From Escherichia phage sutha: a stretch of DNA of 64,000 nt. Numbering within the stretch: the stretch's first letter is position 1; every line of letters starts with the position of its first letter. The translations under genes were made by a program, and so were the position numbers. Positions 8,934 through 62,338 of this stretch are shown piece by piece. The notes beneath the pieces were generated by a model. The model searched no databases, was not told the origin of the DNA, and saw nothing but the letters and a program-made list of their open reading frames with translations. The stretch lies in the sequence record PV245934.1; one strand, 5' to 3'.

Positions 8934-9002
8934 GTTATCGAGTTGGTGCCATTATATACATCATTTTCTGATTGTGTTTTGTGTGCTTTCAAAATGAAGA
9001 AA

Positions 9003-9016
9003 GGGGCCGAAGCCCC
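9003..9016. terminator. hairpin GGGGC-cgaa-GCCCC
   Basis: Perfect GC stem with tetraloop between hoc end and 24.3 start. Confidence 0.6.
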
Positions 9017-9021
9017 TAAGA

Positions 9022-10152
9022 TTATGGATAGGTATAGATGATACCAGTTTCTAAAGCAGTTTTATGAATGATGTATCCATTGCGCGATTCTTGAACATCA
9101 ACTTCTGGATAGTCTTTCATCATCTTCTGAAGAGTGTAACGATGCAAGTAGTACTTACTATCTGGGTCGTCAGTTTTCCAATCTTTACCTTCTTCAGTCA
9201 TTTTTTGGATTTCATCCATAACCCACCAACCACACCAGATGTAAGCTGAAGTGCGATGTGGAAGAGGATGAACATAAGGTAATTCACCTTCTGGTTCTGG
9301 AGCAACTTTATCAGTTACCTGAACTTGACCTTCTGCTGTGATAGTTTTGCTATCATAATCAGTGGCAGTAACAGTTGCAGTAACTTCAATAGTTTGACTT
9401 CCAATAGATGATGTATCAACAGTGTATACATTAGTTGACCCTTCTACTGGAGAAGAATCTTTCTTCCATGAATATTCGATTTGTGCTTCTTCCGGAGCAT
9501 CCGTAACGTTAGCCGTAAATGTAGCCGAAGCATCTTGCTGAACATTAATAGAAGGAGGAGTCAATGTAACCTGTGGATTCATTGTCTTCTTATTAACAGT
9601 CAGTGATACTTCATTAGAAGTAACTTCCTTTGCATCATAATCTGTCGCGGTTACTTGGGCTACGCATTTAATTCTTTTTACTCCACTTGTAGTTGGAGTA
9701 TAGCTAAATGTAGCGGAAGTTGCTTCACTAACAGGAGAATCATCTACATGCCACTGATACGTAGCAGATGCGCCTGATGGTTGAGAAGCTAAAGCAGCAG
9801 TAAATTCAACAGGAGTTCCAATCACTCCAGCAGCAGGACTATCAGGAGTTACAGCTAAGGTAGTTGTCTGTGTCTTATTTTGAACTGTGATAGTTGTACT
9901 AATTTCTGCTGTTTCAGCTTCGGTATCAGGAATAGTATTTGTTGCAACAACTTTAATTGTTTTTGTTCCAGCAGGTCCTTTTAACACATAATCAAAAGTT
10001 TCTGCCGATCCTACTTGAGGAGCATCGTCTACACTCCATGCATAGGTAATAGTTCCACCTCCAGTTTCACCACTGGGTGTAGCAGTAAACTGCTGAGTCT
10101 GATCTATAACTCCAGTAGGTGTTTTAGGAGTTATATCAACTGTAAAAGCCAT
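9022..10152 (-). CDS. hoc: head outer capsid protein Hoc, three Ig-like repeats
   Basis: 376 aa; three ~90-aa repeats each ending in ...TATDYD...; T4 Hoc size and position. Confidence 0.93.
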   Translation of the reverse strand: MAFTVDITPKTPTGVIDQTQQFTATPSGETGGGTITYAWSVDDAPQVGSAETFDYVLKGPAGTKTIKVVATNTIPDTEAETAEISTTITVQNKTQTTTLAVTPDSPAAGVIGTPVEFTAALASQPSGASATYQWHVDDSPVSEATSATFSYTPTTSGVKRIKCVAQVTATDYDAKEVTSNEVSLTVNKKTMNPQVTLTPPSINVQQDASATFTANVTDAPEEAQIEYSWKKDSSPVEGSTNVYTVDTSSIGSQTIEVTATVTATDYDSKTITAEGQVQVTDKVAPEPEGELPYVHPLPHRTSAYIWCGWWVMDEIQKMTEEGKDWKTDDPDSKYYLHRYTLQKMMKDYPEVDVQESRNGYIIHKTALETGIIYTYP

Positions 10153-21500: not shown

Positions 21501-21548
21501 CGGGAATTGTCAACTCGCAAAGTAAAATATTAGGAGCAATATAACAAT

Positions 21549-21566
21549 GGGGACCTTTCGGTCCCC
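21549..21566. terminator. bidirectional terminator GGGGACC-tttc-GGTCCCC
   Basis: Perfect 7-bp stem followed by T-run, between convergent gene 54 and the minus-strand ORF. Confidence 0.7.
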
Positions 21567-21573
21567 ATATTTT

Positions 21574-21864
21574 TTATTTACGGAATGAAATAAAAGCAGC
21601 AACTGAAGCAACTAAACTGTCTTCAATATAAACTTCAATTTTTACCGGAGCTTCTGACTCAAATTTACCTGTTACTACACCTTGGAAAATACTTTCAGTC
21701 TGTTCTGGCTTTGAAAAATTTTCAGAAGGAAAAATTCCGAACTTTTTATCTGTTCCAAAAATTTTGATAAATTCGTCGTAAACCGCTTCATTAAAAGCGT
21801 TATCAGCAGGAATAACGCCTTCAACTACGAGTTCTTGACCTAAAAAGCGCAAAGAAGATTTCAT
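21574..21864 (-). CDS. hypothetical early protein downstream of alt
   Basis: 96 aa ORF with early promoter and GAGGA Shine-Dalgarno upstream. Confidence 0.7.
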   Translation of the reverse strand: MKSSLRFLGQELVVEGVIPADNAFNEAVYDEFIKIFGTDKKFGIFPSENFSKPEQTESIFQGVVTGKFESEAPVKIEVYIEDSLVASVAAFISFRK

Positions 21865-21895
21865 TTTATGTTCCTCATGTTATGTCAGTAAATCT

Positions 21896-21925
21896 ACTAT
21901 AACACAACACGAGGGACTTGTAAAC
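21896..21925 (-). promoter_or_regulatory. T4-type early promoter (GTTTAC -35 with downstream A/T-rich -10)
   Basis: Minus strand GTTTAC-AAGTCCCTCGTGTTGTGT-TATAGT; part of a 54-bp block repeated at 35725-35778. Confidence 0.65.
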
Positions 21926-22041
21926 TACATTTTGAACTTTTTAGACATTCCGTTGACGTTAACCAAAGAAGCCAAGATTTGAGAAACTTCGTTTTCCTCT
22001 TCTTTTGATTCTTCTACAAGGAATTGGTTAAATCCAGTCAT
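21925..22041 (-). CDS. small hypothetical protein, 38 aa
   Basis: Hand-found ORF MTGFNQFLVEESKEEENEV... with ATGA overlap onto the alt stop; below track cutoff. Confidence 0.35.
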   Translation of the reverse strand: MTGFNQFLVEESKEEENEVSQILASLVNVNGMSKKFKM

Positions 22042-24131
22042 TGAACGAACTTGTAAGGAATGTTTGCAATATCTATGCAAGATGCAATAATTCCAAGAGA
22101 TGATTCTACTTTTTGTTTAACATTTGATGAAACAAATGATGCAAAGTCAACTCTGTCTTCTATTTCAATATCACCTGTCATTGCAACTACTTCACCAGTT
22201 TCCATTAAACGGTCACCGTCATAAATTACTGATTCGGTGAGTTCTTCTGTAGTCATAACTTCAGCTTGAATGAGTTTTGTATTATTAGATATTATTCCGT
22301 CATTATTAGAAGCATCAGTTATTTTATTAACTTTGACCATCAATCCGCGTGGTAGAATAACTTCAGCTTCTGATGCTATTCCGAGACTTCCTGGATATAC
22401 AACATTAACTTTATGAGCTCCATCAATTGCCCATCCTATTTGAACTTTAACGTATTCAGGATTTTCTTTATACGCTCTTATTTCGCTTGGATTAATAGTT
22501 ATTCCTTCTTCATTTTTATCAACTGTTAATTCATTACGAGCTTCTGGTTCTAAAAGACCAATACCAGCATGTGTAATTCCAAAACGTCCAAAAATGATAG
22601 GAGTTAAAGAAGTAGATACAAAATTTCTGAAATAGAACACTTTATTTTTAACTAGTGCTTCGTATATAGGAGCAGTCATGCTTTGAGCACGATAAACTGT
22701 AATGCCTTCTGGTATACGGTCACCATTTTCAAAGGCTGAATCTAAATTATTTATCGCAGATTCAATTTCTTTTTCACTCATTACCTCATATCGTTCTGGA
22801 TTGTAGCGGCCTAAAAGAAGATTATTGATGTCGGTATAACCTGAGCCACAGTATTCTCTGATGCCGCGCTTTTGTGATGGAGTATATTTAGAACCATCAC
22901 GGGCAATAGTAATATCAATCATTGGACCTGCACCAATTCCAGAAAAACTATAAATCATTCGTTTGAGGAATACAGTTTTTGCTGCGTTCCAGCAATTTTT
23001 AGTTATTTCTTCCCAGACTTCATCTGGCTGTCCTTTGCGGGTTTTATTATGTGTATCAAGCCATTTATCTTTATATTCTTCAAAGAATTGATTAACAGCT
23101 GCTGCGTATTTCTCTAAACATTTTATTGAAGTAGTTGGTTCATTTTTGATCGCATTAAGAATTACATCTTTAATTTTTTCAGAAACTTCATCAACCTCAC
23201 TTTTTGAAACGAATTTATAGTAATAGCGAAGTTCATTTACAGTTCCTTCGGCAATAATTTTTGCTGCCTTAGTTTTAGAAGCTAATGAATTAATTCCAAG
23301 CTTCATTTCTTCTGCTTCGGGAATTAAAGGAGCGGTAGCAGGTTTATTGAAATTAGCTGCGGTAGATTCATATTTCTGGAATAATTCACTTTCAAATCTA
23401 GAAGATTCCAATGACTGACTTTGTGCAATTGCTCTACGGGAAATTTTAACTTTAACGATTACAGCTTGGTCAGAACGTTTATCATTTTCTTGCGCAATAG
23501 ATGCAGCAATTGCCTCATTTTTAGTTACTTGAGCTCCGGTATCTTTATTGATATAAACATCACCGACCTTCGATTCAACTTTAGTAAAGAGCTCGGTGCT
23601 AATTTCCGGAACTCCTGGAATGTCTTCTAGTGATACATTTTTGCGATGTATAAGAATATATGCATACTTTTTATCATAATCCCAGAGTTCCTTAAGAAGG
23701 ACGTATCTGCCACCTGAACGACTACGGATAAGTCTATCAGCAATAAGTTGAATTTGACGAGCTTGACCAGCAGTTTTAGACTTAAGAATACGGAGCATAC
23801 AGGCATCAATTTTATACTGACGCATCGTTTGCATTGCAACAGTAAAAACTGAATTGATGTAATTAATTGGGCTTGGACCGAGACCTTTTAATTTAGCAAT
23901 TGAACCTTTAGCAGTTAATGTAAAAGGAACAATATGCATCATTTTATCGCCCATCTTTAAATCACGGTTAGTATCACCTCCAGATGTATAGGTACATAAA
24001 CGAAAGCCTGGTTGTTCAATCGCATCATCAACATGAACTGAAAAAATTTGCGGTATTTTCTTCTTTGGATTCAAGTTTGTAATCGGAAGAGTAGTATCTT
24101 CGTCAAATAATTCTGTAATAAGTTCCATCAT
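22038..24131 (-). CDS. alt: Alt ADP-ribosyltransferase, virion-packaged
   Basis: 697 aa; MELITELFDEDTTLPITNL... as T4 Alt; ART-like segments YRAQSMT and FVSTSL; true start may be the second Met. Confidence 0.9.
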   Translation of the reverse strand: MMELITELFDEDTTLPITNLNPKKKIPQIFSVHVDDAIEQPGFRLCTYTSGGDTNRDLKMGDKMMHIVPFTLTAKGSIAKLKGLGPSPINYINSVFTVAMQTMRQYKIDACMLRILKSKTAGQARQIQLIADRLIRSRSGGRYVLLKELWDYDKKYAYILIHRKNVSLEDIPGVPEISTELFTKVESKVGDVYINKDTGAQVTKNEAIAASIAQENDKRSDQAVIVKVKISRRAIAQSQSLESSRFESELFQKYESTAANFNKPATAPLIPEAEEMKLGINSLASKTKAAKIIAEGTVNELRYYYKFVSKSEVDEVSEKIKDVILNAIKNEPTTSIKCLEKYAAAVNQFFEEYKDKWLDTHNKTRKGQPDEVWEEITKNCWNAAKTVFLKRMIYSFSGIGAGPMIDITIARDGSKYTPSQKRGIREYCGSGYTDINNLLLGRYNPERYEVMSEKEIESAINNLDSAFENGDRIPEGITVYRAQSMTAPIYEALVKNKVFYFRNFVSTSLTPIIFGRFGITHAGIGLLEPEARNELTVDKNEEGITINPSEIRAYKENPEYVKVQIGWAIDGAHKVNVVYPGSLGIASEAEVILPRGLMVKVNKITDASNNDGIISNNTKLIQAEVMTTEELTESVIYDGDRLMETGEVVAMTGDIEIEDRVDFASFVSSNVKQKVESSLGIIASCIDIANIPYKFVQ

Positions 24132-24159: not shown

Positions 24160-24167
24160 TATTTATA
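24160..24167 (-). promoter_or_regulatory. late promoter TATAAATA for alt (minus strand)
   Basis: Plus tatttata is minus TATAAATA, ~30 bp upstream of alt ATG. Confidence 0.6.
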
Positions 24168-24189: not shown

Positions 24190-24376
24190 AATAATCTAGT
24201 GGTAAGAGAGTACGATATATTTCAAACTTCGGACCTTTTTCATAGGCATCAAATGTTTCTGTGAATTTATTATAAGCATATGCATCTATAAATTCAATCA
24301 TAATTTGTGATACAGAAGTAGAAACATCTCCACCTTCTTTTTGAGCAACGACAATTGTTTCTAAGTAAGCTTTCAT
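24188..24376 (-). CDS. hypothetical small protein
   Basis: 62 aa, start overlaps gene 30 stop (ATGA). Confidence 0.6.
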   Translation of the reverse strand: MKAYLETIVVAQKEGGDVSTSVSQIMIEFIDAYAYNKFTETFDAYEKGPKFEIYRTLLPLDY

Positions 24377-25836
24377 AGACCAGTTACCTCATGAAAATCA
24401 CCAAATACATCCTCGAATGTATTAGCTTTAGTTTTATCTTCACGTAAACGAATCGCAATCGGAAGAAATAATTTAACGTAATCAGTGCGGCCATCAGATT
24501 TTAGCCAACCGTTGCATTCGCACTCTAGAATTTTTCCAATATAATAATTTTGGTTTTCCATAATGCGAGTACGGTCAAGTTCATGTGATTTTACACCGGC
24601 TTTATCTTTTAAGCCTGAACCAGCATTTACTTTAATTTTTCCACACTCTGATTCAAGAATAAATCCACCTGCTTTAGTAGGGTCTTTACGGTGAGGATAA
24701 ATTCCTACAATTTTTAAATCAACATCAATTACTTCTTTAAATTTATAGAGATTTTTTGAACGAGCATTTTCCCACAATCCATCGGTATTTTTGAGAATAA
24801 TACCTTCAAGACCTTGGTCAATATACTTTTTATAAATTACCTTAGCTTCATCTAGGTTATTTACTACCTGGTTTTCAATTAAAATTACTTTATCATATCC
24901 TGATGTCATTTGTTCTAGTTTAGAAAAACGTACATCATATTTTAAACGAAACGCCGGAAGACCGTATATTTCTACCAACGGGACATAATCCCAGACCTGA
25001 AACTTCATACATTGAGCTTCTTTTTCGGAAATGGTTCCTTTTAAGGATTTATTGGCGATTCCATTAGAAGCAGTACGAGATTCCGCTACTTCGGCGAATT
25101 CTTTAGCTTTACTAATTTCAGGATAAGCATCAAAAAGAAAATCTAGGCCTTCTGGTTCCTTTTTAATTTGCTCATGGTATACCAATTCGCCATCAATTAA
25201 CACACCTTCTGGATGAATCTGGCGGGCTTCAGCAGTCATTTTGATTAATTCTTCCTTAAGAAGATCTAATCCTAGATATTCATTACCAGCTCGTGATAAA
25301 AGACGAACATCATCTAATTCATCACCTCGGACTTCAGCAAAACACCGAGCTCCATCTGCTTTTAACTGTGCAAAGGCTGGAAACTTAATATTCTTACTAA
25401 TGCCTTTTTCATCATAAGAACTTGCCAGCATTTGAGGTTGTTCAGGAATTAAACCTGGCCAAACTTTATTTGCAATAGATACTGAAGCACCGCATTCAAG
25501 GTCTCGCATCATCACTCGACGCAAAACTTCAACATCATCCTTTTTACCATCGGTGATATATCCAGTCAATTCCTCAATTGCAGCATTTCCGGTCAATTTC
25601 CGAGTAGCTAACGTGAATTCAATGAAGTCAAGCATATCGGTAATGGTCAGCATTCCAAAACTCTGGGTAGCAATACCAGGTTTAGGCCATTTCTTGATAT
25701 AATACTGTAACCCACGAGAATAAGTCAGACGATATACCCGTTTAAGCAATTCATTATCTTTATTCTTTTCAAGAATTGCTTGCTTCTGCTTAGTTGATCC
25801 AATAGATGCTATTTCATTCAGAATTTTAAGAATCAT
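24373..25836 (-). CDS. 30: ATP-dependent DNA ligase gp30
   Basis: 487 aa; MILKILNEIASIGSTKQKQAILEKNKDNELLKRVYRLTYSRGLQYYIKKWPKPG... nearly identical to T4 DNA ligase by recall; ligase KxDG motif (FAQLKADGARCF). Confidence 0.98.
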   Translation of the reverse strand: MILKILNEIASIGSTKQKQAILEKNKDNELLKRVYRLTYSRGLQYYIKKWPKPGIATQSFGMLTITDMLDFIEFTLATRKLTGNAAIEELTGYITDGKKDDVEVLRRVMMRDLECGASVSIANKVWPGLIPEQPQMLASSYDEKGISKNIKFPAFAQLKADGARCFAEVRGDELDDVRLLSRAGNEYLGLDLLKEELIKMTAEARQIHPEGVLIDGELVYHEQIKKEPEGLDFLFDAYPEISKAKEFAEVAESRTASNGIANKSLKGTISEKEAQCMKFQVWDYVPLVEIYGLPAFRLKYDVRFSKLEQMTSGYDKVILIENQVVNNLDEAKVIYKKYIDQGLEGIILKNTDGLWENARSKNLYKFKEVIDVDLKIVGIYPHRKDPTKAGGFILESECGKIKVNAGSGLKDKAGVKSHELDRTRIMENQNYYIGKILECECNGWLKSDGRTDYVKLFLPIAIRLREDKTKANTFEDVFGDFHEVTGL

Positions 25837-26965: not shown

Positions 26966-27426
26966 AGAGAGTCTCTTAATAGATTTAACATATCAATAAA
27001 TTCAGCTTCGGTTAGTATTGTATCATCTTTTGTTAGACCACTAGCCATGCTGTGCTTCAAAACTTTTCCTTTCGAGGCTTGTAATGCATCGCGAAAGCCC
27101 TTGTTTTGGAACGCTGCTTCAAAATATGCATTTGTGTATAATTCTTTCCACGCCGGAGAGTATCTTGAAAACGGAACTCCAAGCCAGAAGAGGGTCCCAC
27201 GGTCCTGAGCTCTAGCATAAGACCTTCCAGCTTGTTGGGCGGCAAGCCCGGATAACCCAAATATACGACGTTGCTGTTCAACATTTTTCACCTTACATCC
27301 TTGGAGGAATCCTTCGAGACCTCCAAATTGGATACCATCCATAACAAAAGGCCATTGGGCGAAATTACTTAATGCACATGATGGCCATCTAAAATTGCTT
27401 CTTATCTCTAACTCAGACATTTTCAA
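26962..27426 (-). CDS. NADAR / YbiA-like (DUF1768) protein (30.3 position)
   Basis: 154 aa; LSNFAQWPFVMDGIQFGGLEGFLQGCKV aligns with E. coli YbiA FSNFAAWPIKVDGKTWPTSEHYFQAQKF as recalled. Confidence 0.65.
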   Translation of the reverse strand: MKMSELEIRSNFRWPSCALSNFAQWPFVMDGIQFGGLEGFLQGCKVKNVEQQRRIFGLSGLAAQQAGRSYARAQDRGTLFWLGVPFSRYSPAWKELYTNAYFEAAFQNKGFRDALQASKGKVLKHSMASGLTKDDTILTEAEFIDMLNLLRDSL

Positions 27427-28100: not shown

Positions 28101-28117
28101 AGTAATTTCCTCAGTAA

Positions 28118-28131
28118 GGGGCCGAAGCCCC
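28118..28131. terminator. hairpin GGGGC-cgaa-GCCCC
   Basis: Perfect GC stem with tetraloop followed by T-rich tract. Confidence 0.6.
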
Positions 28132-28141
28132 TCATTTTATT

Positions 28142-28575: not shown

Positions 28576-28908
28576 TTATTTTACTACTTTCCAGTGCTGC
28601 ATGTCAAGTTTACCAACTTTTTTCATCTTCTCAATTAAGCGTTCGGCACGTTGGCGAGCTGTAACATAATGCCATTCACCCAATTCATTTTGTTCAATTT
28701 TTCCAACGATTACTGTATTCAATTCATAAATCCAACCAGTAAAGAAATTATGAACTTGGATTGTAAAGGTGAAATCTGTTCCCATACCTTCTGTTGTTTC
28801 TACTTCAATAATATCACCTTCAACTGCCATTAAGAACCACATAGTTTCATCATATTTACCATTGAAGCATTTAGTTTTAACTGTGGCGTTCAGATTAATC
28901 GTTTTCAT
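28576..28908 (-). CDS. hypothetical early protein
   Basis: 110 aa ORF preceded by an early promoter. Confidence 0.6.
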   Translation of the reverse strand: MKTINLNATVKTKCFNGKYDETMWFLMAVEGDIIEVETTEGMGTDFTFTIQVHNFFTGWIYELNTVIVGKIEQNELGEWHYVTARQRAERLIEKMKKVGKLDMQHWKVVK

Positions 28909-28930
28909 TTTATTCTCCTTTGTTTGTGTA

Positions 28931-28965
28931 AGATAATACTATCACAAAGGAACTATACTGTAAAC
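28931..28965 (-). promoter_or_regulatory. early promoter (GTTTAC -35)
   Basis: Minus GTTTAC-AGTATAGTTCCTTTGTGA-TAGTATTAT upstream of the 110-aa ORF. Confidence 0.5.
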
Positions 28966-29638: not shown

Positions 29639-29785
29639 TTAAAAATTCTCGTTAGAGATTAAAACTCGGTAGTCACGTTCTTCTGAATTTCATCTTCTTT
29701 CGACAGATCTCTCAGTTGTAGACTACCACATAGAATTGTTCGGTTAACTTATTATTCCGATACCCAATTCATATTATTATTTATA

Positions 29786-30121
29786 TCACTTATAAAGACA
29801 CGGAATAGCTTTATAGTGACAGGTAACAAATTTTTGTTTAATTTCTTTTGGCTGCTTAAGACCTAGAGCTACAAAAGGATGCGGAACGTTTCGAATTTGA
29901 CCAACTGGAAGAGAAGTCAAATCACCAACTTCGCAGAAACCTTCAGGAACATCAGGACCAACAGAGTGAACTACACACAGTTCAGGAACTTCACCTTGAA
30001 CACGTTTACCGATAATAAGTCCTGATTCTGTAACTTCTTCATCACCGGCTTGTGCAGGTTCAGAAACTAAAATAACATATTCACCGACAGCACGAATTGG
30101 TAGCTGTTGTACTTCAGACAT
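29786..30121 (-). CDS. 31: co-chaperonin gp31 (GroES-like)
   Basis: 111 aa; [38 protein letters not shown] matches T4 gp31 by recall. Confidence 0.95.
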
Positions 30122-30177: not shown

Positions 30178-30486
30178 TTATTTACCAATAAATTGAAGCA
30201 AATGCTCAACTTTCATGCCATTAACTGAAATCAATTTGTCAATAGAAAAACCTCGCCATGCACCAAGCTCAACATCAAATACTGGAATCATATCAGTAGA
30301 TTCTTTCCGAGTAGATTCAGTCAATTTACCGGTTTGCATAGTTGGCATAAAGTCAGCATCACGAGTGCCTTTCATAGTACGAATAGTACCATCAGACTTT
30401 TCAAAAACCACGTTTGAAATACCCATGGACAATTTAGTTTTCAAAATTTCACGAATTGCTACTTTCTGTTCAGTTGTCAATTTCAT
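30178..30486 (-). CDS. hypothetical protein (31.1 position)
   Basis: 102 aa ORF. Confidence 0.65.
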   Translation of the reverse strand: MKLTTEQKVAIREILKTKLSMGISNVVFEKSDGTIRTMKGTRDADFMPTMQTGKLTESTRKESTDMIPVFDVELGAWRGFSIDKLISVNGMKVEHLLQFIGK

Positions 30487-34873: not shown

Positions 34874-35223
34874 TTAGAAAGGTCCTGGATGTCTTCTGCG
34901 AACTTGTTGAAGGAGTTGTTGATTTGTTTTTCAACCAATCCTGGCTTATGAGCCACCACATCCGCCTTCTTTGCGTCTTTGCGCAGTTTTTCATTTTCAC
35001 GCTCAATAGCAGCAATTGCCTCACGATTTTTATTATTCATCGCATCAATATAATTATACTGAATTCGCAAATTATTTAATGCTAAAGCGTTTTCATTGGC
35101 CGTTTTTGTAATTTCTACAACAGACGTTTCTAATCTTTCAATTTTATTTTTTAAAATTAAAGAAGTTCCGCCCAATGCAATTACAATTAATAGCAAGCCT
35201 GCTGTCGTATTACTTAATTGCAT
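34870..35223 (-). CDS. N-terminal transmembrane coiled-coil protein, candidate i-spanin
   Basis: 117 aa; TM helix AGLLLIVIALGGTSLIL then coiled-coil-like region. Confidence 0.6.
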   Translation of the reverse strand: MQLSNTTAGLLLIVIALGGTSLILKNKIERLETSVVEITKTANENALALNNLRIQYNYIDAMNNKNREAIAAIERENEKLRKDAKKADVVAHKPGLVEKQINNSFNKFAEDIQDLSK

Positions 35224-35717
35224 AAAGTTTTAATAACCTCTATAATATCGTCTTGAGAAAGACCGTTAATTAAAATATGATGTTCAGCCGGAGATTTAGA
35301 AATTTTAAAGCATGCCTCAACATCTTCTGCCATATCTGATGCGCTACGATTTGGATTACTAATTCCAAGACGATGTTTTCCCGTCAAAGGATTAACGATG
35401 ATATAGCATTTACAGTTGTTAATATGAACATTAGGTTGAGTCTGATTAATGAACACATCACAATCATATTTCGCAAGCTGATTTTCTAAAAAGACTTTCA
35501 TCTCCTCAACTGCATCAGGAAGCATATCACGGGCTTGCTCAAGACGACGATTTCGATATTCTTTAATGGTCGTTTTCCGCTTGACTTGCTTAGCTAAATC
35601 TTTCTTAAGATCGGTGATATATCCAACTCGACGATTTCCTTTAAATACAGAAATCCCATCTGTAGTATCACCGTATGCTTCAACGACCATTTCAGTAGTA
35701 ATAAGCTGTAAATCCAT
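35214..35717 (-). CDS. alc: Alc transcription terminator / inhibitor of host transcription
   Basis: 167-168 aa at the T4 alc position between spanin genes and rnlA; early promoter upstream. Confidence 0.75.
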   Translation of the reverse strand: MDLQLITTEMVVEAYGDTTDGISVFKGNRRVGYITDLKKDLAKQVKRKTTIKEYRNRRLEQARDMLPDAVEEMKVFLENQLAKYDCDVFINQTQPNVHINNCKCYIIVNPLTGKHRLGISNPNRSASDMAEDVEACFKISKSPAEHHILINGLSQDDIIEVIKTLCN

Positions 35718-35748
35718 CATAAAGTCCTCATGTTATGTCAGTAAGACT

Positions 35749-35778
35749 ACTGTAACACAACACGAGGGACTTGTAAAC
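35749..35778 (-). promoter_or_regulatory. early promoter (GTTTAC -35) within conserved 54-bp block
   Basis: Minus GTTTAC-AAGTCCCTCGTGTTGTGT-TACAGT; near-identical to block at 21872-21925. Confidence 0.65.
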
Positions 35779-35781
35779 AGC

Positions 35782-37369
<1,588 letters not shown>

Positions 37370-40937: not shown

Positions 40938-41669
40938 ATGAAATCTGGAATATATGCTATTATAAACACTAAAACCAATAAGCACTATATAGGAAGTGCA
41001 ATTAATTTTGAAGAACGATGGAAACGACACTTCAAAGATTTAGATAATGGAAATCATCATTCAATAAAGCTGCAACGTTCTTATAATAAGCATGGGAAAG
41101 ATGCTTTCGTATGTAAAATCATAGAAGAACTTCCATACGAAAAATCTATCATTATTGAACGTGAAAATTATTGGATACATGAATATGACTCAAAGGAAAA
41201 TGGGTATAATATAGCAGACGCATCGTTTGGGGATACCTTATCTCATCACCCAAGAAAGCAAGAAATCCTTAATAAAATTTCAAATGCAATTAAAAATAAT
41301 AATTCAAAATTATCACCAGAAGAACTTAAGCAAAAACATGGTAGACCTAAAGATATTAAAGGTAAAACTATAGAAGAACACTATGGGTTAGATCGTGCTA
41401 TAGAAATAAGCAAAAAGTTCCAAGAAAGAAACGCTGCACTTAATATGAAAGGCATCAATAATCCATATTATGGACAGACACATACCAATGAAGTTAGAAA
41501 ACGAATTTCTGACTCACAAAGAGGTAAAAAGAAACCCCATCTAAGAGTAAGTATAGATGGGGTAGAATATCCAACAATAGCAGAAGCTGTGCGTCAAACC
41601 GGAATAAGCAGAAAACTTATATCTAAAAGATGTGCTCTAGATTGTTGGGAATCATATTTATACTGCTAA
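40938..41669 (+). CDS. free-standing GIY-YIG homing endonuclease, I-TevI-like catalytic domain with NUMOD/HTH C-terminus
   Basis: 243 aa; first ~100 aa ([21 protein letters not shown]...RWKRHFKDL...[12 protein letters not shown]...IIERENYWI...[13 protein letters not shown]) closely parallel I-TevI; C-term [22 protein letters not shown] and [22 protein letters not shown]; antisense to flanking nrdA/td. Confidence 0.85.
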
Positions 41670-45886: not shown

Positions 45887-45929
45887 ATTATTTTCCTCTT
45901 TAATCATCAGCAGTATTGCCGATAGTTGT

Positions 45930-45959
45930 ATAGTACCATGGAAGGACAAGGATGTAAAC
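45930..45959 (-). promoter_or_regulatory. early promoter (GTTTAC -35) within repeated cassette
   Basis: Minus GGTTTAC-18 bp-TACTAT; cassette shared with 62249-62338. Confidence 0.6.
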
Positions 45960-45990
45960 CGTTTTGTGAAAAAAATTTTGAAATAAAAAA

Positions 45991-46008
45991 GGGACCTCTA
46001 GGGTCCCC
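45991..46008. terminator. terminator GGGGACCC-ta-GGGTCCC after gene 32
   Basis: Near-perfect palindrome flanked by A-run and T-run, directly downstream of gene 32 stop. Confidence 0.7.
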
Positions 46009-62216: not shown

Positions 62217-62257
62217 TTTCTAATCTCCGTAATTCTGTATCAGTAGTTGATAGTTGT

Positions 62258-62287
62258 ATAGTACCACAGTATGCTTTGGTTGTAAAC
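62258..62287 (-). promoter_or_regulatory. early promoter for motA within repeated cassette
   Basis: Minus GTTTAC-18 bp-TACTAT; cassette shared with 45921-46008. Confidence 0.6.
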
Positions 62288-62318
62288 CGTTTTGTGAAAA
62301 AATTTTTGAAATAAAAAA

Positions 62319-62338
62319 GGGAGAGCCGAGGCTCTCCC
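62319..62338. terminator. terminator GGGAGAGCC-ga-GGCTCTCCC
   Basis: Perfect 9-bp stem with flanking A-run and T-run. Confidence 0.7.

Follow-up and report, generated by a model that had tools for sequence, protein, structure and literature searches.

An early promoter within a predicted ribosome-binding-site hairpin, repeated upstream of alc and alt.-3 in Tequatrovirus

Background

In phage T4 and its relatives, translation of several genes is gated by a hairpin in the mRNA. The Shine-Dalgarno (SD) sequences of T4 e, soc, 49, I-TevI, I-TevII, I-TevIII and segB, and of mobE from Aeh1, are held in a stable helix in RNA that was started upstream (PMC3014915, PMC2988022). At each of these genes, a promoter lies within the DNA encoding the 5' arm or the loop, and RNA from that promoter lacks the inhibitory arm. 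These promoters are late or middle promoters, and the hairpin-gated genes "are all late genes" in the review by Edgell. Here we describe a 54-bp cassette that occurs twice in a 64,000-nucleotide stretch of Escherichia phage sutha (record PV245934.1; "the window" means this whole stretch), once upstream of alt.-3 and once upstream of alc. In both copies, computational folding places the SD in a stable helix in upstream-started RNA, and the promoter geometry is the same as in the e, soc, 49 and I-TevI gates. The promoter differs in being of the sigma-70 early type rather than a late (TATAAATA) or middle promoter, and the genes served are early, not late, in T4 omics data. By analogy, the logic of the gate would be inverted relative to the known gates: open at the start of infection and closed on later read-through RNA.

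The second related system is the PeSL cassette (Arbiol et al. 2010, Comeau et al. 2014), an intergenic composite that joins a strong early promoter to a stem-loop and to an SD next to the ATG. PeSL cassettes are repeated at several loci and recombine with each other. The copies described here share all of these features, being intergenic composites of the same three parts that have recombined with one another. In RB49 and phi1 the PeSL stem-loops often lie between the -35 and -10 elements or overlap the -10, and some of their pairs were reported to be G-T (PMC2839356). The stems described in PST and T4 lie immediately upstream of the promoter. PeSL stem-loops have been read as terminators or attenuators, without discussion of translation; in the present cassettes the SD itself serves as the 3' arm, and a U-tract is lacking. 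Finally, PeSL cassettes lie preferentially beside variable ORFans in hyperplastic regions; the alc and alt.-3 copies flank essential genes, and copy A also adjoins a variable segment. The combination found here is a new twist on two known T4 devices, the PeSL and the promoter-in-hairpin gate, and not a new kind of element. We found no mention of a hairpin at alc or alt.-3, or of SD sequestration by an early promoter spacer, in the reviews of T4 transcription, post-transcriptional control and mobile DNA or in the PeSL papers, a scope that did not extend to Miller et al. 2003 and the older sequence papers.

A repeated early promoter cassette

The two cassettes occupy the alt.-2-alt.-3 and rnlA-alc intergenic gaps. 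That positions 21872-21925 and 35725-35778 of the window are nearly identical on the minus strand was recognized in the original prediction, and the blocks align without gaps at 51 of 54 positions. Copy A (21872..21925) serves the alt.-3 homologue (96 amino acids, 21574..21864, minus strand), which was identified from the list of open reading frames (ORFs), the T4 annotation and tblastn. Copy B (35725..35778) lies between rnlA (35782..36942, minus strand) and alc, encoding the host transcription inhibitor (35214..35720, minus strand). Similarity between the copies runs from the G of GTTTAC to the A after GAGG, and the sequences flanking it are unrelated.

A search of the window for further copies, as had been suggested, returned exactly these two sites at three or fewer mismatches, and none in 100 dinucleotide-preserving shuffles. 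Blastn with 114 nucleotides (nt) around either copy matched 499 records at 997 places, two per genome, and T4 (NC_000866.4), T2, T6 and RB14 are among the records. The source phage is a Tequatrovirus closely related to T4; a 2-kb query around the repeat matched 542 phage records with identities of 80-99%, and the majority of these records carry the names of Escherichia, Shigella or Yersinia phages. Since 499 records, T4 included, have two places each, the sequences indicate that the repeat pair is a fixed feature of Tequatrovirus and not a peculiarity of this isolate. One 32-kb record labelled "Staphylococcus phage SAJK-IND" (MG010123.1) contains the copy A region at 94.7% identity and is probably a T4-like sequence that was mislabelled or contaminated.

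Each copy reads as a strong T4-type sigma-70 early promoter, and the earlier promoter assignment was correct. In copy A a promoter scan found the -35 element TTTACA (21919..21924), a 17-bp spacer ending in TGT, and the extended -10 element TATAGT (21896..21901), with 10 of 12 consensus positions. Copy B has TTTACA (35772..35777) and TACAGT (35749..35754) with the same spacing and TG (9 of 12); its -10 is TATAGT in most relatives. Both copies have the -35, the 17 ± 1 bp spacer, the TGn and the TAnnnT -10 of T4 early promoters, and both match the PST/T4 early promoter consensus TTTACW-N17-TAYWAT (PMC4122927). The same scan recovers the promoter Pe133295 of the T4 record (window 32453; L031 10670-10732, where L numbers are our labels for individual comparison sequences). 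From sigma-70 geometry, transcription is predicted to start at the A seven nt after the -10, at block position 37 (window positions 21889 in copy A and 35742 in copy B, minus strand).

Ordinary T4 early promoters have the same GTTTAC, TGn, TAnnnT and 17-bp spacing but share consensus positions only, whereas the alc/alt.-3 pair shares the entire spacer and leader. The concern that the leaders might be no more alike than those of other early promoters was not borne out when ten early-promoter blocks in the window were compared. Over the whole block, the repeat pair matches at 51/54 positions, the next best pair at 39/54 and the median pair at 25/54; over the leader alone, the corresponding values are 18/18, 14/18 and 6/18.

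Pairing between the promoter spacer and the leader

In the minimum free energy (MFE) fold of the RNA, the promoter spacer (CCUCGUGUUGUGUU, block positions 12-25) is paired with the leader and SD core (GACAUAACAUGAGG, positions 40-53). The resulting 14-bp stem is followed by a 4-5-bp apical stem closing a tetraloop, and the -10 is at the top. The 5' and 3' arms are at 21901..21914 and 21873..21886 in copy A and at 35754..35767 and 35726..35739 in copy B, all on the minus strand, with the GAGGA of the SD core at 21872-21876 and 35725-35729. The MFE is -23.0 kcal/mol (z -4.54) for copy A and -28.6 kcal/mol (z -5.23) for copy B, and none of 200 shuffles was as stable. The three differences between the copies are structure-neutral, two being in the tetraloop and one changing a U.G pair to C-G. 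On the antisense strand the MFE is only -17.4 and -17.9 kcal/mol, which is 5.6 to 10.7 kcal/mol worse, with mismatches at three G.U positions. Because these three pairs break on the opposite strand, the fold can be assigned to RNA of the mRNA sense.

The leader and ribosome-binding site (RBS) are thus complementary to the promoter's own -35/-10 spacer, and this accounts for the conservation of both. The original prediction rightly held the leader to be conserved beyond promoter needs, but missed the complementarity as the reason. It also suggested a shared post-transcriptional signal, which stands as an intramolecular hairpin; for a nuclease or regulator site we found no evidence.

In modelled RNAs, the probability that the SD is unpaired is 0.001 for copy A in read-through context; for copy B it rises from 0.016 in read-through RNA to 0.75 in RNA from the predicted start. 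The whole window had no match to an Rfam family at gathering score. No intrinsic terminator was called at either block, and the tails, AACAUAAAAUG and CUUUAUGAUGG, have no U-tract; the idea that the hairpin is an intrinsic terminator was rejected on these grounds. In both copies, the AUG of AUGAGGA opens a mini-ORF whose UGA overlaps the AUG of the gene. We rejected this mini-ORF as a signal because the same AUG in phage QL01 runs out of frame past the start without a stop, and because AUGAGGA is a common SD context in T4.

Proposed gating of translation

We propose that in these cassettes an early promoter is set inside an RBS-hiding hairpin, and that pairing between spacer and leader gates the translation of alc and alt.-3. 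From modelled folding and the analogy to known gates, we estimate the probability of this reading at about 0.6; the structural and evolutionary description of the cassettes we hold with high confidence. RNA that was started upstream, reading from rnlA into alc or from alt (22038..24131, minus strand) into alt.-3, would contain both arms, and its RBS would be buried in the 14-bp stem capped by the 4-5-bp stem. The predicted start falls after the 5' arm, so by geometry the promoter's own RNA lacks that arm; it would begin in the loop, leaving the RBS free. Translation of Alc and Alt.-3 would then probably be confined to their own immediate-early transcripts, to the exclusion of later read-through RNA, while recombination between the two loci would keep the copies nearly identical. 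The repeat, its promoter motifs, the stable sense-strand hairpin, the covariation across genera, the confinement of the alt.-3 copy to one lineage and the haplotype common to both loci are shown by the sequences. In this scheme we infer where transcription starts, whether and how much read-through RNA is made, the block to translation and its biological purpose.

Read-through is plausible because the terminator scan called no terminator between rnlA and alc or between alt and alt.-3. A TATAAATA late-promoter-like motif just upstream of alt (24160..24167, minus strand), found by pattern match only, may supply late read-through RNA across copy A. The annotation of Alt as a virion protein suggests that it is made late. 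Time-resolved omics of T4 class both alc and alt.-3 as "early RNA, early protein", rnlA as "early RNA, late protein" and the alt.-1/alt.-2 RNA as "middle" (PMC9697503 supplements). These classes suggest an expression boundary at the cassettes, as a translational boundary would produce, without proving one.

The shut-off of early protein synthesis is only partly understood, with RegB cleavage and early promoter shut-off as the known contributors. Alc, RegB and ModB act in the first minutes of host takeover. If the gate exists, a cis-acting rule, by which a gene is translated only if transcribed from its own early promoter, would add a regulatory layer and would explain the conservation of spacer and leader at some early promoters.

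The alc cassette in other genera

Alc homologues outside Tequatrovirus have 60% identity or less. We compared the region upstream of alc in eleven non-Tequatrovirus lineages and found the same architecture in Gelderlandvirus (Melville), Dhakavirus (QL01), Jiaodavirus (Merci), Karamvirus, Winklervirus (LC53) and Bragavirus (phiP4-3). In all six, GTTTACA is followed by a spacer that pairs with the leader and SD, with the -10 in the loop. The stem sequences themselves differ among genera, for example UCUCCAUUUGGUU/AACCAAAUGGAGA, AUCCUCAUCAG/CUGAUGAGGAU and AACCUCUCAUUUUUA/UGAAAAUGAGAGGUU, and the hairpins have z scores of -3.3 to -6.9. When the register of the 5' arm is fixed by promoter geometry, spacer positions 8-16 are paired in all seven genera, the only exception being one bulge, C13 of T4, and each position shows between one and three types of pair. 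The SD core is at least 99.9% paired in these alc cassettes, a value reached by no more than 1.7% of composition-preserving spacer shuffles. Modelled release of the SD on going from read-through RNA to RNA from the cassette's own start is also found outside Tequatrovirus, with unpaired probabilities of 0.000 and 0.57, respectively, in QL01 and of 0.003 and 0.56 in a Karamvirus phage.

A covariance model built from seven sequences scores cassettes of the alc/alt.-3 type at 50 bits or more (59 bits for copy A and 60.2 bits for copy B) and the other early promoters tested at 40 bits or less. In the alignment fitted to this model, the covariation score was 0.237, compared to 0.146 ± 0.022 for shuffles, none of 500 of which reached it, and at most 0.102 for slid partners. 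However, in this alignment the Tequatrovirus helix is shifted by 3-4 columns against the helices of the other genera, and the covariation count is diluted as a result; only 69.5% of the cells pair, and a control slid by +3 also gives 70%. The per-sequence table anchored on promoter geometry is the cleaner evidence.

The alc region is arranged differently in Acinetobacter and Aeromonas phages. Gaprivervirus VR7 (L015 260-493) has an extra 77-amino-acid Alc-like ORF between rnlA and alc, apparently a partial duplication of alc, and no early promoter directly before alc.

Variation, exchange between loci and origin of the alt.-3 copy

Scans of IMG/VR with Alc and Alt.-3, and a metagenome scan with a stem-free pattern, gave only a handful of near-identical relatives, so variation was sampled from GenBank phage records. 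The sample comprised 26 Tequatrovirus copies, including those of T4, T2, slur14 and OE5505 together with the IMG/VR and metagenome contigs. Both loci have a single consensus, GTTTACAAGTCCCTCGTGTTGTGTTATAGTAGTCTTACTGACATAACATGAGGA. The two copies are identical in slur14 (54/54) and differ at one base in T4 (G40A, U.G to U-A). Five of the six variant sites in the main stem keep pairing: C15U (C-G to U.G), G16A (G.U to A-U), C13U (to U.G), G40A and U27C, the last found at the alc copy only. The pair-breaking exception, C12A, affects the terminal pair in one contig. The 3' arm is invariant except at position 40, and the loop is about three times more variable than the stem. We regard this pattern as supportive but not decisive, given the small sample and the fact that half of all transitions would be tolerated in such a stem.

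Sequence has passed between the copies at the two loci. T2 and contig L010 carry the haplotype C11T+C15T+G16A at alt.-3; OE5505 carries it at alc and has the consensus sequence at alt.-3. Because the same three substitutions are found at either locus in different phages, the haplotype is best explained by ectopic recombination or gene conversion between the loci. The loop change G32A is also common to both copies of T2. Recombination between cassettes is the behaviour reported for PeSL (PMC2839356), and a regulatory cassette that is copied from gene to gene and kept uniform by recombination is a concrete example of PeSL shuffling between conserved genes.

At alt.-3, the homologues from Gaprivervirus, Dhakavirus, Mosigvirus, Marfavirus and Karamvirus have a different cassette with an exposed SD and a spacer mini-hairpin of the type CCACAAGGATGTGG. 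These cassettes are 0.73-0.85 identical to each other and 0.62-0.76 identical to the Tequatrovirus cassette. Outside Tequatrovirus, the alc and alt.-3 promoters of the same genus have a similarity of 0.74-0.80, compared to a cross-genus background of 0.62-0.83. Near-identity of the two promoters is therefore specific to Tequatrovirus, since same-genus similarity elsewhere is no higher than background. In the simplest history, the alc cassette would be ancestral, and a copy of it would have replaced the alt.-3 promoter in the Tequatrovirus lineage, which also has the alt.-1/alt.-2 duplication remnants beside the alt.-3 cassette. The "recent duplication" first suggested for the pair thus applies to the alt.-3 copy, which is specific to Tequatrovirus; the alc copy, on the other hand, belongs to an architecture of seven genera, and the loci keep exchanging sequence.

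The alc cassette of Mosigvirus, with spacer CACCAAGGAAGGTG and an exposed SD, is more similar to cassettes of the alt.-3 type (0.76-0.80) than to other alc cassettes (0.65-0.69; regions compared, L016 ~440-503, L044 90-170 on the minus strand and L022 ~442-503). The resemblance hints that a cassette was swapped here in the reverse of the Tequatrovirus direction. The mini-hairpin CCACAAGGATGTGG also recurs at T4 rIIA.1 and nrdC.4 (L045 ~2400-2458, L046 ~915-973) besides the alt.-3 loci of Dhakavirus and Marfavirus (L021 and L023, ~440-503), and these cassettes look like one family reused across loci and genera.

Early promoter cassettes at other loci

We surveyed 29 early-promoter cassettes from T4 1-77 kb and the window, using as controls chimeras of the promoter of one cassette with the leader of another. 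A folding energy of -17 kcal/mol or below was found in 12 of the 29 native cassettes and 2.6% of the chimeras, and -20 kcal/mol or below in 7 of 29 and 0.9%, respectively. Weak pairing of SD and spacer is generic; specificity is confined to helices that are long and stable.

About half of the stable cassettes bury the SD. Besides alc and alt.-3, these are T4 motB.2 and modB (T4 8218 and 13186; L045 8159-8218 and 13128-13186) and nrdC.8, regB and denV (T4 53943, 62797 and 65413; L046 3883-3943, 12738-12797 and 15353-15413), all on the minus strand. Their hairpins have -18 to -24 kcal/mol in read-through RNA, and the promoter's own start is inside or beyond the 5' arm; in modB the 5' arm is the -10 region itself. 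The other stable hairpins, at dmd, mobD.2, ipI, ipII, 30.7 and cd.2 (window 28573, 32453 and 45227, minus strand; L045 20612; L046 7990, 15799 and 23939), end before the SD, and in them the spacer pairs with the -10/+1 region. In stability they match the SD-burying class, and they may represent PeSL-type stem-loops.

It is possible, and we suggest it only tentatively, that anti-SD hairpins in early promoters are a selected and widespread device of T4-like phages, found at alc in at least seven genera and at T4 regB, modB, motB.2, denV and nrdC.8, which would make immediate-early translation dependent on the promoter and would move between loci by ectopic recombination. If so, synthesis of these proteins would stop when the early promoters are shut off, despite continued upstream transcription. 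Ectopic moves of a cassette would rewire the post-transcriptional control of the recipient gene, as at alt.-3 in Tequatrovirus. On this view, some of the extra consensus in the spacers of T4 early promoters, so far unexplained, would reflect a signal at the RNA level rather than a contact with RNA polymerase.

Several other cassettes resemble those at alc and alt.-3 or are themselves repeated. That of the gene 30.8 homologue (window 28906-28965, minus strand) has the same architecture, its spacer UUCCUUUGUG pairing with CAAAGGAG, including the SD; this hairpin is weaker, at about -12 kcal/mol with a spacer-shuffle p of about 0.09. The T4 dmd and mobD.2 cassettes (L045 20553-20612, L046 7932-7990) are near-identical over ~45 nt, with a 15-bp spacer/+1 hairpin, and lie 37 kb apart. 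The rIIA.1 and nrdC.4 cassettes are another near-identical pair at distant loci. A 74-nt pair of early promoter repeats in the window (45921-45994 and 62249-62322) is 86% identical and covers an A/T-rich upstream element, the -35, the -10 and the first transcribed bases ACAACTATC; the T4 cassettes at 27080 and 70696 (e.8) are of the same type. The alc/alt.-3 pair is the tightest example of this recurrent pattern, which is in keeping with the PeSL cassettes as conceived by Arbiol et al. and Comeau et al.

Evidence against gating and alternative explanations

Several observations weigh against a translational gate. Its function is argued from folding and from analogy. In RNA from the predicted start, the SD of copy A is only moderately open (0.34, in a 130-nt context). 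Ribosomes that terminate at the upstream stop codons, 0-5 nt ahead of the cassette, might also melt part of the stem at its base. Under a loose criterion, pairing of the SD core to the spacer in the MFE fold, the native cassettes of our survey were not enriched over the chimeras (11/29 and 36%). SD sequestration at alc is absent from Mosigvirus, Kanagawavirus and Gaprivervirus, and must be dispensable there: Mosigvirus has only a small hairpin within the spacer, and the Kanagawavirus hairpin ends 5 nt before the SD. Within Tequatrovirus, the diversity of the alc block (0.025) is not clearly lower than that of its coding flanks (0.042 upstream and 0.019 downstream). Since block and flanks are similarly diverse, selection on the alt.-3 copy is inseparable from recency and gene conversion.

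Among the alternatives, the one that survives best is a PeSL-type insulator, in which the hairpin terminates, attenuates or 3'-stabilizes the upstream RNA, or acts as a processing site of the RNase III type, and burial of the SD is incidental. An early-promoter stem-loop of RB49/phi1 did act as a terminator in a lacZ fusion (PMC2839356). That about half of the stable promoter hairpins end before the SD implies some role that does not depend on it, and in copy B the stacked stems come close to two turns of a helix. However, neither hairpin is followed by a U-tract, the tails in the other genera are A-rich and none was called by the terminator scan. An insulator alone would also not need the 3' arm to end exactly on the SD, as it does in seven genera, with the SD always included in the helix. 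We consider this explanation unlikely.

The repeat could instead be the product of history only, through a recent ectopic copy and ongoing gene conversion, the alt.-3 copy having no selected post-transcriptional role of its own. The SD-exposing cassettes that work at alt.-3 in five other genera would agree with this, as would the haplotype common to both loci, the similar diversity of block and flanks, and the alt.-1 and alt.-2 duplication remnants of the Tequatrovirus alt region. Yet it leaves the architecture of the alc copy across seven genera unexplained. Moreover, the stem substitutions at alt.-3 mostly preserve pairs (C15U, G16A, G40A) while the loop is more variable, and the cassette has been kept at alt.-3 in ~499 genomes. 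Such a purely historical origin appears rather improbable to us.

More improbable still is a leader that serves as the site for a trans-acting factor, such as a RegB-like nuclease, a RegA-like repressor or a host RNase, co-regulating alc and alt.-3. The 18-nt leader is identical in both copies, and T4 RegB and RegA do act at translation initiation regions (PMC3014915). The Tequatrovirus leader, AUGAGGA(A/C), nevertheless has no GGAG core of a RegB site; the alc leaders of other genera do contain GGAG. The alc leaders differ between genera yet stay complementary to the spacer, which speaks for pairing rather than for a site bound by a sequence-specific protein, and a leader-binding factor would not explain the equal conservation of the promoter spacer. 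A DNA-level role of the inverted repeat, as a cruciform, protein operator or recombination hotspot, is the least probable alternative: the repeat does span the promoter and the copies have recombined, but the three G.U pairs become C.A mismatches on the other strand, at the energy cost given above, and C15U and G16A preserve pairing in RNA only.

Gene context and other features of the window

Copy A adjoins a variable segment of alt.-1, alt.-2 and second alt genes, and copy B is located between the conserved rnlA and alc. In the window, an alt.-2-like remnant of 51 amino acids (21925-22080, minus strand) lies between alt and copy A. Some Tequatrovirus genomes (OE5505 120931-125040; L036, L038) have two tandem full-length alt genes where T4 has alt and the alt.-1/alt.-2 remnants, and the segment beside copy A is therefore structurally variable within the genus. 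Downstream, a terminator-like GC hairpin (21547..21568), situated between alt.-3 and gene 54, closes the transcription unit of alt.-3; it was called by the terminator scan and is annotated as a terminator in relatives.

The 13.8-kb interval between the copies holds gene 30, encoding DNA ligase (24373-25836), gene 31 (29786-30121), cd and pseT. Genes 30 and 31 are essential in T4. Recombination between the repeats should therefore give no viable deletion phage, although recombination itself may occur. The proposal that the direct repeats are deletion substrates agrees with the literature on PeSL recombination (PMC2839356), but not to the extent of predicting recoverable deletions across this interval.

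Further TATAAATA late-promoter-like motifs are found upstream of gene 31 (29778-29785, minus strand) and at 41655-41662 (minus strand), and motifs resembling the MotA box of middle promoters at 30178 and 41334 (both minus strand); all are pattern matches only. A GC-rich hairpin, AAGGGGCCGAAGCCCCU, is repeated 19 kb apart in the window (8998-9025 and 28113-28140, 86% identical over 28 nt) and resembles a terminator stem, capped by a GAAG loop, that has been reused.

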